64,000 bases of DNA, taken from assembly GCA_963692775.1 (NCBI GenBank), contig OY839116.1:1542544-1606543 (forward strand), read 5' to 3'. Below, in pieces: positions 59,085 to 64,000 of this stretch (the stretch's first letter is position 1; every line of letters starts with the position of its first letter). The position numbers and the translations under genes are program-made. The notes under the pieces are model-generated. The model was not told the origin of the DNA. It was given only the letters and a program-made list of their open reading frames with translations, and made no database searches. This DNA is from Dehalococcoidia bacterium. Lineage in GTDB: Bacteria; Chloroflexota; Dehalococcoidia; UBA2979.

Positions 59085-62000
59085 CTAGATCGCCTCTGCC
59101 GTGGCGAGCGCCTCGGACTGCGCGTCGCCCGCCCGCGCCGCGCTGCCGAGCACGCCGAGCAGCGGCTTGAGTTCGGGCAGCAGCGCCTCGATGTCGGCGA
59201 CGGGAGGCAGGCGCAGGCGTTCGCTGCGGCCGTCTTGCGCCTGCAACTCGATCTCCACCGGCTGCGCGCCGGGGTGGGCCTCGAGGAGCTGCACGATCTT
59301 GCCGAGGCGGCGGCGGTCCGCGCCGCTGTCCGTGGTCTCCTCGATCAGGATCCAGAGCCGCTGCGGGCCGTCCGGCGGCGGACCGGGGCGCGGTCGCCGT
59401 CCGCCCGGCGCGCCGTTGCGCCGGGCGCCGTTCGCGGCGGCAGCCGGGCCGTGCGCCCCGTTGCCGCCTGGCTGGGCCGCGGCCGGGGCGCCGTGCCCGT
59501 TCCCGTTCGCGGCTGCCTCCGGGATCGGCGGCACCGCCTCCAGGTGGGGCGCCGCGCCGTTGCCGTTGGCGGCGGCGCGGTCCGCGCCGCGCTGCTGGCG
59601 GCGGCCTCGCGAGGGCGTGAACCGGGCGGGATCGAAGTTCAGCGGCTTGCCCTTCTCCGGGTCGTACGGGGCGAGTTCGGCGACGGCGAGCGTGAGACGG
59701 TCGCCGCGCTCCCGCACCTCCACCTTCGCGAGCAGCACGTTGCCGTGCACCAGCAGCGCCTGGTGCTGCTCGTAGGAGTCGGGCCAGACCGTCAGCTCCG
59801 CCGTGCCGCTGAGATCCTCGACGGTGACGGCGGCGAAGGCCTTGCCCTGGCGCGTCGTCAGCCTGCGGACGCCCGTGACCATCCCGGCCACGACCGCCTC
59901 GAGGCCCGCCAGCTCCGCCGTCAGCTCCGGCGTCTGGTGCGTGACGTGCTCCGCGAGACGCTGCGCCCCCTCCCGGAACGGGTGCGCCGAGACGTAGGCG
60001 CCGAGCAGCTCGCGCTCCCAGCCGAGCAGCTCGCGCTGCGGCGTCGCGACCGCCTCGAGCTCCAGCGCGGGCAGCGGCGTGTCCACCTCGTCGCCGAACA
60101 GGTCGAACATCGAGGTCTGGCCGGTGTCGCGCTGGCGCTGCGCCTCCTGCGCGACCGTGAGGATGCGGTCCACGCCGTAGACGATCGCGGAGCGGTCCAC
60201 GCCGTCTGAGCCGAGGCGGTCGAGCGCGCCCGCCTTGGCGAGCGATTCGAGCACCCGGCGGTTGCAGTCGCGCGCGTTGACGCGCCGCGCGAAGTCCTCG
60301 ATCGAGCCGAACGGGCCGTCCTTCTCGCGCTCGGCGACCAGGCCCTCGACGGCGGCCGCGCCGACGTTCTTGATCTGCGCCATGCCGAAGCGGATCGCCG
60401 GCTCCTCGCCGCTGGCCGGGTCGCCGAGGCGCTCGATCGCGAAGTTGACCCCGGAGCGGTTGACGTCCGGCGGCAGGACGGAGATGCCGAGGCGCAGGCA
60501 CTCCGCGATCGCGGCGGCGATGCGCTCCTGCGCCCCCGTGGGGTGCGCGCCCGCGGCCATCAGCACGGCGGTCATGAACTGCACCGGGTAGTGCGCCTTC
60601 AGCCAGGCCGTGCGGTAGGCGATCACGCCGTAGGAGAAGGCGTGCGCCTTGTTGAAGGCGTAGCCGGCGAACGGCTCGATCAGGTCGAAGAGCTGCTCGG
60701 CGAGGCGGCGGTCGTGGCCGTTGGCCAGCGCGCCCTCGATGAAGCTGTCGCGCTCGGCGAGCATCACCTCGGGGATCTTCTTGCCCATCGCCTTGCGCAT
60801 CACGTCGGCGTGGCCGAGCGAGTAGCCGGCGAAGGTGCGCGCGATCTCCAGCACCTGGTCCTGGTAGGTGATCACCCCGTACGTCTCGTCGAGCACGCCC
60901 GCGAGGTTCTCGTGCGGGTAGTGCGGCGCGGCGCGGCCGTGCTTGACATCGACGTAGCGCTGGATGTGCTCCATCGGGCCGGGGCGGTAGAGCGCGATCA
61001 TCGCCGCCAGCTCGCGGATGTCGCGCGGCTGCAGCTCCGTCACCCAGCGCCGCATCCCGCCGCCCTCGAGCTGGAAGACGCCGAACGTGCGGCCCTCGCG
61101 CAACAGGTCCGCCGTCGCCTCGTCCCCGTCGGGGATCGACTCGAGGTCGAGCGGCTCGCCGAGGTGCTCGCCGATCAGGTCGGCGGCGCGGCCGAGGATC
61201 GTGAGGTTCGCCAGCCCGAGGAAGTCGAGCTTGAGCAGCCCGATCTTCGCGACGTCGTTCATGTCGAACTGCGTCGTCGGCAGCGGCTGCTCGTCGTCCT
61301 CGCGCGCGGAGGTGGCGCGCTGCAACGGCGCGACGTCGACGAGCGGCTCGCGCGAGATCACGATGCCGGCGGCGTGCGTGCTCGCGTGGCGGGCGACGCC
61401 CTCGAGGCTGCGCGCCGTGTCCAGCAGCTCGGCGACGGCCTGGTCCTCCTCGGTCGCGCGGCGCAGGTCCTCGACCTCGTTGAGCGCCTGGTCGAGGGTG
61501 ATGCCGAGCGAGTTCGGCACGAGCCGGGCGACGCGGTCGACCTCGCCGTAGGACATGCCGAGGGCGCGACCGCTGTCGCGGATCGCGGCCTTTGCGCCGA
61601 GCGTCCCGAAGGTGACGATCTGCGCGACGCGGTCGCGGCCGTAGCGCTCGGCGGCGTAGCGGATCACCTCCTCGCGGCGGTCGTCGGCGAAGTCGAAGTC
61701 GACGTCCGGCATCTCGCGCCGCTCGGGGTTGAGGAAGCGCTCGAAGACGAGCCGGTACTGTGTCGGCTCGATGTCGGTGACGTCCAGGCAGTAGAGGACG
61801 ATCGAGGCCGCGGCCGAGCCGCGCACGCCCATCGGGATGCGCTGCTCGCGGGCGAAGCGGGCGATGTCGCGCACGATCAGGATGTACTCGGCGAACCCGG
61901 TCTCCGCGATCACCTCGAGCTCGTAGCGCAGCCGCTCGCGCTGCTCCTCGCCGGGGTCGCGGTAGCGCCGCTCGAGGCCCTCCTCGCAGAGCTGCCGGAG

Positions 62001-62879
62001 GTAGCCGTCGGCGGTCAGGCCCTCGGGGATACCGGGGTCGGGCAGCAGCGTGCGCCCGAAGTCGAGCCGGATGTCGACCTGCTCGGAGATGCGCGAGGTG
62101 GCGTCGCAGGCCTCGGGCAGTTCGGGCAGCAGCGCGCGCATCTCCTCCTCGGAGCGGAGGTAGAAGGTGCCGCCCTCGAGCTTCATGCGGTCGGTCTCGT
62201 GGATCGTCGAGTTGGTGCCGATGCAGAGCAGCACGTCGTGGGGGTGCTCCTGCTCGGGCGCGGTGTAGTGCGAGTCGTTGGTCAGCACCAGCGGCAGCTC
62301 GAACTCGCGGGCGAGCGAGACGAGGCGAGGGTTGAGGCGGCTGAACTGCTCCTGGCCGTGCTCCTGCAGCTCGACGTAGTAGCGGCCGGGGAAGACGTCG
62401 GCGTACCAGCCGAGGGCCTCGCGGGCGTCGGGCTCGCGCTCCTCCTGGAGCGCCGTCATTACCTCGCCGGAGGGGCAGGCGGAGAGCGCGATCAGGCCCT
62501 CGTTGTGCCGTTCGAGCAGCTCGCGGTCGACGCGCGGCCGGTAGTAGAAGCCTTCCAGGTGCGAGGCACTGGAGAGCTTGAGCAGATTGCGGTAGCCGGT
62601 CTCGTTCTGCGCGAGCAGGGTGAGGTGGAAGGGGGTGCGCGAGGCGGCGCTGCGGTCGAAGCGGCTGCCGGGCGCGACGTAGCCCTCGAGGCCGATGATC
62701 GGCTTGATCCCGTTGGCGCGCGCCTCCTCGTAGAACTGGAGGGCGCCGTGCAGGTTGCCGTGGTCGGTGATCGCGAGGGCGTCCTGCCCGAGCGCCTTCG
62801 CGCGCGCGACGAGGTCCGGGATGGTGCTGAGCCCGTCCAGCAGTGAGTACTCGGTGTGTGTATGAAGGTGCGTGAACAT
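59085..62879 (-). CDS. dnaE: DNA polymerase III alpha subunit
   Basis: PHP domain MFTHLHTHTEYSLLDG, Pol-beta-like palm, OB fold, then NG/A-rich linker and a roughly 90-aa C-terminal domain; 1264 aa. Confidence 0.95.
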   Translation of the reverse strand: MFTHLHTHTEYSLLDGLSTIPDLVARAKALGQDALAITDHGNLHGALQFYEEARANGIKPIIGLEGYVAPGSRFDRSAASRTPFHLTLLAQNETGYRNLLKLSSASHLEGFYYRPRVDRELLERHNEGLIALSACPSGEVMTALQEEREPDAREALGWYADVFPGRYYVELQEHGQEQFSRLNPRLVSLAREFELPLVLTNDSHYTAPEQEHPHDVLLCIGTNSTIHETDRMKLEGGTFYLRSEEEMRALLPELPEACDATSRISEQVDIRLDFGRTLLPDPGIPEGLTADGYLRQLCEEGLERRYRDPGEEQRERLRYELEVIAETGFAEYILIVRDIARFAREQRIPMGVRGSAAASIVLYCLDVTDIEPTQYRLVFERFLNPERREMPDVDFDFADDRREEVIRYAAERYGRDRVAQIVTFGTLGAKAAIRDSGRALGMSYGEVDRVARLVPNSLGITLDQALNEVEDLRRATEEDQAVAELLDTARSLEGVARHASTHAAGIVISREPLVDVAPLQRATSAREDDEQPLPTTQFDMNDVAKIGLLKLDFLGLANLTILGRAADLIGEHLGEPLDLESIPDGDEATADLLREGRTFGVFQLEGGGMRRWVTELQPRDIRELAAMIALYRPGPMEHIQRYVDVKHGRAAPHYPHENLAGVLDETYGVITYQDQVLEIARTFAGYSLGHADVMRKAMGKKIPEVMLAERDSFIEGALANGHDRRLAEQLFDLIEPFAGYAFNKAHAFSYGVIAYRTAWLKAHYPVQFMTAVLMAAGAHPTGAQERIAAAIAECLRLGISVLPPDVNRSGVNFAIERLGDPASGEEPAIRFGMAQIKNVGAAAVEGLVAEREKDGPFGSIEDFARRVNARDCNRRVLESLAKAGALDRLGSDGVDRSAIVYGVDRILTVAQEAQRQRDTGQTSMFDLFGDEVDTPLPALELEAVATPQRELLGWERELLGAYVSAHPFREGAQRLAEHVTHQTPELTAELAGLEAVVAGMVTGVRRLTTRQGKAFAAVTVEDLSGTAELTVWPDSYEQHQALLVHGNVLLAKVEVRERGDRLTLAVAELAPYDPEKGKPLNFDPARFTPSRGRRQQRGADRAAANGNGAAPHLEAVPPIPEAAANGNGHGAPAAAQPGGNGAHGPAAAANGARRNGAPGGRRPRPGPPPDGPQRLWILIEETTDSGADRRRLGKIVQLLEAHPGAQPVEIELQAQDGRSERLRLPPVADIEALLPELKPLLGVLGSAARAGDAQSEALATAEAI

Positions 62880-63049
62880 CGGCTCTCGCTACCGAGAATC
62901 GGCTTATGTCGTTACGCGAACGCGCGTGCGGGCTGTGTCCGCAGGGTGCCGGATCGCGGCAGGGCTGTCAACCAATGGTGTACGGGCGGCAGGGTGGAAA
63001 CAGGGGAGCTTTTGTTCTATTGTAGGCTCGCGGGTGAGGAGGTGCGATC

Positions 63050-63499
63050 ATGGCGGCACAGGGGGTCTTCACGAAGACGGCGGAAACCTCAGAGGAGCAC
63101 CGCCACCGGTTCATCTGCGCCGCGTGCCGCGCCCCACTGGATTCGCTGCCGCTGGTGAATAAGGCGGCCGTGAGCATCCCGGACATGGAGGGTGCCGCGT
63201 GCCCGCGATGCAAGGGGTGGCTGTCCAGGAACCTGATGATCATCGTCGCGGATTGCGACGCGGAGGCCTGCGAGATGCGGGCGGCGATCACGCGCATCGA
63301 GCAGGGGCACGAGGCCGAGGGCTGCGAGGATTGCTACGGCATCTGCGCTCGTGGCGGCTGTCACTGCGCCCCGTTCCACCTCGATGGCTGCGAGCCTGAC
63401 TGCGTGAACGAGTGCGTCGACTGCGACATGGTGCTGGATACCCCGGAGTCCGTCGCCCTCTGGGCGGCGCGAAACCGGCAGTGGGAGGCGGCAGCGTGA
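63050..63499 (+). CDS. Cys-rich hypothetical protein (149 aa, 18 Cys in CxxC/CxxxC clusters)
   Basis: GAGGAGG RBS then ATG; lower-GC region; TGA overlaps the GTG of the downstream methyltransferase. Confidence 0.5.
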   Translation: MAAQGVFTKTAETSEEHRHRFICAACRAPLDSLPLVNKAAVSIPDMEGAACPRCKGWLSRNLMIIVADCDAEACEMRAAITRIEQGHEAEGCEDCYGICARGGCHCAPFHLDGCEPDCVNECVDCDMVLDTPESVALWAARNRQWEAAA

Positions 63500-64000
63500 C
63501 GTATCGCTTCTACGCTCACTCGTCGGAGGAGATGCGCGAGGTCGACGACGGTAGCGTTACTTTGACGGTGACCTCGCCACCGTACTGGAATTCGATCGAC
63601 TACGACATCCACACGGGCCAAGGCAACGACGCGTGGCATAGAGAGCGCGAGTATCAAGCGTTCGGCGAGACGTTTGAGGACTACCTCTCCAATATCGAGA
63701 AGGTATTCGGAGAGGTTCTCAGGGTGACGCAGGACGGCGGGTTCTGCGCCATCGTGGTTGGTACGATCCTCTATAAGGGCAAGCACTATCCGACTCCGAT
63801 GATGATTACAGAGCGCATGTTGAAAATAGGTTGGGAGTTCCACCAGGACATCATCTGGAACAAGGTGACTGGCGGAGTGAAGCGAGCGGGGTCGTTTATC
63901 CAGCGACCGCGGTCTGGGTATTACTACCCGAACATCATGACGGAGTACATCCTGGTGTTCCGCAAGTCTGGCGAACCACGGCGAGGGACCAAACAGGCAC
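63496..64000 (+). CDS. DNA methyltransferase, beta-class N4/N6 (SPPY motif IV), 3-prime truncated by window end
   Basis: N-terminus ...EVDDGSVTLTVTSPPYW matches the GD..E.L..LPD.SVDLI.TDPPY motif of N4-C/N6-A methyltransferases; alternative GTG start at 63481. Confidence 0.7.
   Translation, partial: MTYRFYAHSSEEMREVDDGSVTLTVTSPPYWNSIDYDIHTGQGNDAWHREREYQAFGETFEDYLSNIEKVFGEVLRVTQDGGFCAIVVGTILYKGKHYPTPMMITERMLKIGWEFHQDIIWNKVTGGVKRAGSFIQRPRSGYYYPNIMTEYILVFRKSGEPRRGTKQA

Follow-up and report, generated by a model that had tools for sequence, protein, structure and literature searches.

Gene organization at the locus

The stretch of DNA analyzed here, referred to as the window, comprises 64,000 nucleotides from the genome of a Dehalococcoidia bacterium (assembly GCA_963692775.1, contig OY839116.1, positions 1,542,544 to 1,606,543). 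Its right end carries a cysteine-rich open reading frame (ORF) followed by a DNA methyltransferase gene. We read these genes as the start of a mobile Type II restriction-modification operon that lies beside dnaE and has a cysteine-rich accessory protein as its first product, and we assign a probability of roughly 0.55 to this statement as a whole. The operon reading is based on gene order, the junction with host DNA, conserved synteny, and family matches. Its core, namely that positions 63003–64000 are the left end of a three-gene Type II restriction-modification cassette, is very probable.

The dnaE gene (59085–62879, minus strand) is separated by a 170-nt spacer from the cysteine-rich ORF (63050–63499, plus strand), which starts with ATG and encodes an orphan protein of 149 amino acids (P0001) with 15 cysteines and an isoelectric point (pI) of 4.76. 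A Shine-Dalgarno sequence read from the sequence as GGAGG (63038–63042, plus strand) lies 7 nt upstream of the ATG and agrees with the strong ribosome-binding site described in an earlier note on this DNA (hereafter the original prediction). The TGA of this ORF (63497–63499) overlaps the GTG of the methyltransferase gene (63496) as GTGA at 63496–63499. A second Shine-Dalgarno sequence, GGGAGG (63483–63488, plus strand), is located within the 3′ end of the cysteine-rich ORF, 7 nt before the GTG. The window contains the 5′ 60% of the β-class amino-methyltransferase gene (63496–64000, plus strand; 168 of 278 codons), including the SPPY motif IV at 63574–63585, and the gene runs past the window end. 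The full-length methyltransferase of the source genome (P0003, 278 amino acids) is 100% identical to the window fragment and shares its start codon. Upstream of both genes is a conserved non-coding element, GGGGAGCTTTTGTTCTATTGTAGG (63003–63025, plus strand), with the core GAGCTT[G/T]TGTTCTA at 63006–63019 and a −10-like TATTGT at 63018–63023.

The gene structure, the methyltransferase, and the stop/start overlap are thus as originally predicted, but two numerical claims were not borne out. The 18 cysteines reported there are 15 by our count, and the GC content of 55–58% given for the last 1.1 kb applies to the methyltransferase part (56.2%) and not to the cysteine-rich ORF (68.2%) or the spacer (62.9%); the value over 62880–64000 is 62.1%, and that of the whole window is 71.9%. 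No tandem repeats were found in this region, a search of 62700–64000 against Rfam matched no RNA element, and no convincing terminal inverted or direct repeats were found to bound the cassette.

Methyltransferase

The methyltransferase frame contains DDGSVTLTVTSPPYW, which includes SPPY (residues 27–30). Against the Pfam family N6_N4_Mtase (PF01555, curated cut-off 26.7 bits), the 168-residue fragment scored 57.8 bits (E = 1.9e-15) and full-length P0003 scored 140.9 bits (E = 7.4e-41). The Type II methyltransferase model of PADLOC (MTase_II) matched at 7.4e-65. In β-class enzymes, motif IV (S/D-P-P-Y) is located N-terminal to the S-adenosylmethionine-binding motif I (FxGxG), and motif IV reads SPPY in N4CMT, an N4-cytosine enzyme, and DPPY in CcrM, an adenine enzyme (PMC10406627). 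The order is the same here, with SPPY preceding the motif I DPFLGSG near the C-terminus of P0003, and the β-class SPPY assignment of the original prediction is confirmed. In a search of PDB sequences, the closest solved relative was TTHA0409 (PDB 2zie; E = 1.4e-32 over residues 10–262), which is a dimeric β-class enzyme (PMC7544214), and the next matches were the N4-cytosine methyltransferases 8s9m/8s9n. From the SPPY form of motif IV and the N4-cytosine matches, we infer that the predicted specificity is most likely N4-cytosine. A search for the recognition site by palindrome avoidance, run on the window together with 840 kb of loci that carry the partner, gave generic CTAG/GGCC-type depletion only, with no specific candidate.

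A scan of a genome collection with the methyltransferase fragment provided 80 related loci (L001–L080) at 60–81% methyltransferase identity, and SPPY is kept in 79 of them. A basic arm at the N-terminus (..A[IV]V..KRRKGIxEGxGYR), located about 100 nt upstream of the match, is conserved in most of these enzymes. This arm is missing from the window methyltransferase, and a short acidic stretch takes its place in L081–L087. The loss of the arm in the branch that bears the cysteine-rich gene is compatible with an altered regulatory arrangement.

Putative nuclease partner encoded downstream

In 44 of the 80 related loci, a gene for a near-full-length partner protein of ~205–230 amino acids is located directly 3′ of the methyltransferase gene on the same strand (tblastn recount). 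The partner start overlaps the methyltransferase stop in many of these loci, and the two genes overlap in all of the closest cassettes. The source genome encodes such a partner (P0128, 211 amino acids), which is 74% identical to that of L082 and retains all family-invariant residues; judging from the related loci, it would adjoin the methyltransferase gene just beyond the window end. By the same tblastn recount, the remaining loci have partner fragments (11/80), no partner (24/80), or a contig that is too short (one locus), and decay to an orphan methyltransferase is therefore common in the family. The methyltransferase itself stays intact where the partner is fragmented or absent, as in L016, L037, L045, L047, L054, L061, L069, and L072.

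An AlphaFold model of the partner built with 85 homologues had a predicted local distance difference test score (pLDDT) of 85. Its best fold matches in the PDB were NhoI, the N-terminal domain of Eco15I, Hjc, PvuII, and NlaIV, all of which are PD-(D/E)XK enzymes. Asp79 and the Ser89-x-Lys91 pair are invariant or nearly so and are located on adjacent strands of the model, with Glu54 on the preceding helix. These residues form a candidate D...SxK motif, whose SxK part may be akin to that of Cfr10I-type enzymes. Together with them, the model weakly suggests a putative nuclease that belongs to an uncharacterized family and has a PD-(D/E)XK-like core, with predicted endonuclease activity. Among the options left by the original prediction (restriction-modification, orphan methyltransferase, or anti-restriction), the first is therefore favored by the partner gene in 44 of 80 loci, by P0128 in the source genome, and by the PD-(D/E)XK-like model.

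Two further observations concern the partner region. In a Rhodothermales metagenome-assembled genome (MAG; L057:9962–13141), the methyltransferase frame stays open for ~1046 codons and partner homology appears only afterwards, which may represent a fusion or an inserted domain. In the closest cassettes, a gene for a 263-residue PLD-like protein (PLDc_2, 1.4e-10) is located 3′ of the partner gene (L082:2064–2855, L085:1146–1937, L086:1121–1912, and L084:2183–2365).

Cysteine-rich protein

The cysteine density of the ORF is not exceptional by itself, as shadow non-coding frames elsewhere in the window reach 13–15 cysteines per 149 residues. The gene is supported because a homologue keeps all nine cysteines of its C-terminal module and because its frame alone shows a strong synonymous excess. 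The homologue, a protein of 78 amino acids (P0002), was found with HMMER among 1.84 billion cluster representatives (E = 5.7e-7) and is 53% identical to residues 79–140. These residues form an acidic module (63284–63469, plus strand; pI 4.3) with the pattern CxxCxGxCxxGGCHCAPFHxxxCEPDCx(3-4)CxxCD, in which nine cysteines and two histidines are invariant across copies at 45–53% identity. The metagenome contigs L081, L082, and L083 encode P0002 and almost identical versions of it, each directly 5′ of a methyltransferase gene whose product is 88% identical to that of the window, followed by an overlapping gene for a 208-residue partner. In these three loci and in L087, ORFs of the P0002 type lie between the conserved upstream motif and the methyltransferase gene. 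The original prediction had allowed that the cysteine-rich ORF might lack conservation beside methyltransferase genes elsewhere, and it is in fact kept there in the closest cassettes.

Comparison of L081 with L087 over 61 codons gave 10 synonymous and 7 non-synonymous changes, corresponding to a ratio of non-synonymous to synonymous rates (ω) of 0.145 (binomial p = 0.0005). Four of the other five frames showed no synonymous excess, and the phase-matched antisense frame showed a weaker one (p = 0.0098). The ORF thus probably encodes a real protein under selection.

Outside this group the protein has no detectable relatives in the sets that were searched. HMMER over the 1.84 billion representatives returned only the protein itself and P0002, a word-indexed search of 5.8 billion proteins returned only itself, and neither two JGI metagenome scans nor a viral-contig scan gave a homologue. 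In the 80 related loci, tblastn and a scan for cysteine density detected no comparable ORF 5′ of the methyltransferase gene; the hits there were ferredoxins of the host and the zinc ribbons of IS1595. The cysteine-rich gene is restricted to one young branch of the cassette family.

Searches with the protein in Pfam and NCBIfam (both at E up to 1), PADLOC, and PHROGs gave no credible match and no helix-turn-helix (HTH) motif, the best hit of a PDB profile search had an E value of 0.3 and was not credible, and neither the zinc-ribbon families of Pfam nor the IS1595 zinc ribbon matched. Binding of a metal, zinc, is the most likely predicted property because the cysteines and histidines are regularly spaced. 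The window copy also has ~65 additional N-terminal residues, absent from the 78-residue homologues, that contain a CxxC-24-CxxC pair of zinc-ribbon-like appearance (Cys23/Cys26 and Cys51/Cys54; 63116–63211, plus strand). A resemblance to the scorpion-toxin pattern GxCxxxxCxC (E = 2.7–5.6) was rejected as chance. Descent of the gene from the IS1595 transposase gene, whose position it occupies relative to other cassettes, was also rejected (BLASTP E = 25).

Upstream element, insertion site, and horizontal spread

The element GAGCTT[G/T]TGTTCTA with a TAnnnT hexamer is located 25–35 nt before the start codon in all copies of the cysteine-rich gene. The core does not vary among the window, L081, L082, L083, and L084, and it is also found in L087. 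The element, GAGCTTKTGTTCTA, is not palindromic, unlike a C-box operator. It is probably the promoter of the operon, an assignment made from position and conservation because a consensus scan called none.

The dnaE gene of the window clusters at ≥90% identity with that of a Chloroflexota MAG. Gene order around the site is conserved in two such relatives, L089 and L090 (acyl-CoA dehydrogenase ... dnaE, CLC channel, MoxR). The alignment of the window with L089 covers dnaE and its 5′ region as far as position ~62993, where homology ends; cassette sequence begins at 63003. The 5′ region of the host dnaE (62880–62993, minus strand), which is outside the cassette, is ~90% identical to the corresponding region of L089 and contains TTGACA at 62966–62971 (minus strand). 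Alignments with L089 and with the cassette-bearing L081–L084 place the left junction of the acquired cassette at 62994–63003, where homology to relatives stops and cassette-specific sequence starts. The sequence CTGTCAAC upstream of the motif, shared by the window and L082, was considered as part of the cassette and rejected, since it belongs to the host dnaE TTGACA region and is conserved with L089.

At the same dehydrogenase–dnaE site, L089 (7225–7895) has a pair of genes encoding a 91-residue protein and a PIN-domain protein in place of the cassette, and L090 (4915–5636) has a pair encoding an HTH protein and a 68-residue protein. It is a variable site and a hotspot for small modules, possibly of the addiction (toxin-antitoxin-like) type. 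Relatives of the methyltransferase occur in Poribacteria, Dehalococcoidia/Tepidiformaceae, Gamma- and Alphaproteobacteria, Acidobacteriota, Spirochaetota, Cytophagales, and Rhodothermales. The cassette family as a whole spans many phyla at 60–88% methyltransferase identity, with at least eight phyla represented in L001–L080. The other gene pairs at the dnaE site, the homology break, the fall in GC content from 72% to 56%, and the distribution of the family over many phyla together argue for horizontal acquisition, as had been proposed in the original prediction. Many of the MAGs that carry the cassette belong to groups which we take to be sponge-symbiont taxa (Poribacteria, Tepidiformaceae, Spongiisociaceae, and Thioalkalivibrio sp. 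HK1), a view taken from taxonomy, as the record titles name no sample source. The family looks like a product of exchange across phyla, perhaps inside one habitat, and offers a concrete case of such exchange of defence genes.

In ~10 related loci, a gene for an IS1595-family transposase (DDE_Tnp_IS1595, 5e-41, with Zn_ribbon_IS1595) ends at or overlaps the methyltransferase start. The transposase is located ~1 kb upstream on the same strand in L002, L006, L007, L010, L011, L029, L043, and L044, and fragments are present in L009 and L033. This arrangement suggests that an IS1595 element can carry the methyltransferase/nuclease pair as cargo or move with the pair beside it. L006 and L007 belong to one Dehalococcoidia MAG that has the transposase–methyltransferase–nuclease unit twice, on two contigs, with identical coordinates, identity, and E values. 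In L088 (1029–5831), an orphan copy of the methyltransferase gene is preceded by a gene pair (76 and then ~575–600 amino acids) in three tandem copies, and the products have no Pfam annotation.

Proposed function of the operon and alternative explanations

In the proposed operon, the promoter-like element would be followed by the genes for the acidic cysteine-rich protein, the SPPY methyltransferase, and, just past the window, the nuclease of ~211 residues. The methyltransferase would protect the sites of the host, and the nuclease would cut unmodified incoming DNA. When a restriction-modification system enters a new cell, the methyltransferase is needed before the nuclease, and known solutions to this timing problem rely on HTH controllers, on methyltransferases that regulate themselves, or on antisense RNAs. 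The cysteine-rich protein may tune the expression or activity of the enzyme pair at this stage. As it is acidic and has no HTH, its action would depend on contacts with proteins or RNA, unlike that of a classical DNA-binding controller. We lean only weakly toward such an accessory or regulatory role, because the gene is the first of the operon, travels with the cassette element in two unrelated contexts, and belongs to the branch that lost the basic arm. A more specific proposal, that the protein founds a new class of metal-binding, acidic accessory factors without an HTH, controlling the timing or strength of the nuclease after cell entry, is speculative. Such a factor might bind the nuclease or the methyltransferase, or sense metal or redox state, and could replace the basic N-terminal arm of the methyltransferase in its branch. 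If regulation is indeed its function, a conserved and selected acidic protein of metal-binding appearance encoded by the first gene would be a different solution to the timing problem.

Several observations weigh against this reading, and some of them concern the enzymes. The window ends before the nuclease gene would begin, so that its adjacency to the methyltransferase gene in the source genome is deduced from relatives. The fold matches of the partner are weak (E = 0.01, probability 0.98, template modelling score 0.3–0.5, identity 11–16%), and the partner had no match in Pfam, NCBIfam, PADLOC, PHROGs, or PDB sequences; for the same reason, the partner family may offer a new specificity. A scan for consensus σ70 promoters and terminators called nothing at the upstream element. 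Other observations concern the cysteine-rich gene and its product. The gene is absent from all 80 more distant cassettes. L084 has the upstream gene, the motif, and the methyltransferase gene as in L081, with the cysteine-rich ORF cleanly missing. In L087, the module is kept without a canonical start codon and with an altered C-terminus. The stop/start overlap is not conserved, with a gap of 39 nt between the two genes in L081 and L082, nor is the N-terminal half of the protein. Between the window and L081, ω for the module is 0.445 at a synonymous divergence (dS) of 0.9; for the methyltransferase at this divergence, ω is 0.05 and dS is ~1.5. The pI of 4.0–4.8 argues against DNA binding, and the AlphaFold model of the protein is uninformative (pLDDT 40). 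The L084 deletion, the missing start in L087, and the absence of the gene from the other cassettes indicate that the cassette works without it.

These same features are what would be expected if the cysteine-rich ORF is a young, dispensable orphan on one cassette branch, possibly a leader ORF whose translation brings ribosomes to the methyltransferase gene, and has no specific part in restriction-modification. We consider this explanation tentative and nearly equal in probability to the accessory role. It accounts for the confinement of the gene to the branch with ≥87% methyltransferase identity and its absence from the 80 other cassettes, for the deletion in L084 and the lack of a start in L087 within one population, for the unrelated N-terminal halves of the two versions, and for the absence of homologues elsewhere in the searched protein, metagenome, and viral sets. 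Short CPDC-type units also recur in the module (families D2/D5 of L087), hinting at an origin by local duplication. It fits less well with the frame-specific purifying selection (ω 0.145, p = 0.0005), with the retention of nine cysteines and two histidines where the dS of the methyltransferase is ~1.5, with the strong Shine-Dalgarno sequence of the gene's own, and with its presence in two unrelated genomic contexts. Should the gene turn out to be a passenger, what remains is a Type II system of an ordinary kind that was acquired horizontally.

The protein might instead be an inhibitor or DNA mimic that restrains its own nuclease until methylation is complete, or that blocks the restriction system of a recipient on transfer. 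ArdA and Ocr are small acidic DNA-mimic anti-restriction proteins, and the strong acidity of the module and of P0002 (pI 4.05; 18 Asp/Glu versus 1 Lys/Arg), together with production from the first gene of the operon and hence before the enzymes, would suit such a role. It is unlikely, however, as the protein has no similarity to anti-restriction or phage families in Pfam, PHROGs, or PADLOC, L084 lacks the gene though its nuclease gene is intact, and the structural model is not usable. To our knowledge, DNA mimics are not cysteine-rich.

It is also improbable, slightly more so than the mimic, that the methyltransferase of the source genome is effectively solitary (epigenetic or a relic) with the nuclease inactive or encoded elsewhere. 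The 24 loci without a partner, the 11 with fragments, and the indirect placement of the partner in the source genome would allow this, but the source genome has an intact P0128 with all family-invariant residues, and methyltransferase and partner genes overlap in all of the closest cassettes. That the methyltransferase comes from an ordinary prophage, and that the ORF upstream is a small phage gene unrelated to it, is very improbable: the match to the phage methyltransferase family phrog_67 (4.4e-50) is one that most β-class enzymes give, whereas no phage genes flank the methyltransferase in the window or its relatives, viral contigs gave no match to the module, and the neighbors in related loci are the nuclease partner or the IS1595 transposase.

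Comparison with known systems

The enzyme pair itself is of an ordinary kind, and the undescribed parts are the nuclease family and the cysteine-rich gene. The arrangement shares with PvuII-type Type II systems a β-class SPPY methyltransferase (M.PvuII was a weak PDB sequence match; 1boo, 1.9e-6), a small, dimer-sized predicted nuclease of the PD-(D/E)XK-like kind, with PvuII among the weak fold matches of the partner, and a third small gene beside the enzyme pair. The genes for the small protein, the methyltransferase, and the nuclease are, however, co-linear here, whereas the controller gene of the PvuII system is located upstream of the nuclease gene; moreover, the small protein here is acidic, cysteine-rich, and devoid of an HTH, and no described family includes the nuclease. 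The solved protein most similar to the methyltransferase, TTHA0409 (M.TthA0409) of Thermus thermophilus HB8, has been described only as a putative methylase. We know of no small cysteine-rich partner of this protein. The similarity of the partner to NhoI, the Eco15I N-terminal domain, and the Hjc resolvase, its best fold matches, may extend to the arrangement of Asp79, Ser89-x-Lys91, and Glu54, but it is at the fold level only.

Like the controller (C) proteins C.PvuII, C.AhdI, C.Esp1396I, C.Csp231I, and C.Kpn2I, the cysteine-rich protein is a small product of a Type II operon placed to act before the nuclease accumulates. C proteins are Xre-type HTH dimers that bind C-boxes, whereas the protein studied here is acidic and has no HTH match, and the motif upstream of it persists where the gene is deleted. 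A classical controller protein is therefore ruled out by the lack of an HTH, by the acidity, and by the non-palindromic element retained in L084. The papers on restriction-modification controllers that a literature search retrieved all deal with HTH proteins, and none describes a cysteine-rich controller or partner in such operons. The view of the original prediction that a cysteine-rich upstream partner is unusual is supported. The likeness to ArdA and Ocr is limited to small size and strong negative charge: the cysteine-rich protein is without a sequence or family match (Pfam, PHROGs, PADLOC), and it is encoded in a restriction-modification operon and not in the leading region of a plasmid or among early phage genes.

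Other features of the window

The C-terminal part of dnaE (window 59200–59700, minus strand) contains a low-complexity stretch rich in Ala, Gly, Asn, and Pro (..AANGNGAAPH..AANGNGHGAPAAAQPGGNGAHGPAAAANGARRNGAPGG..) before the last domain. This stretch coincides with a local peak of GC content of ~80%.

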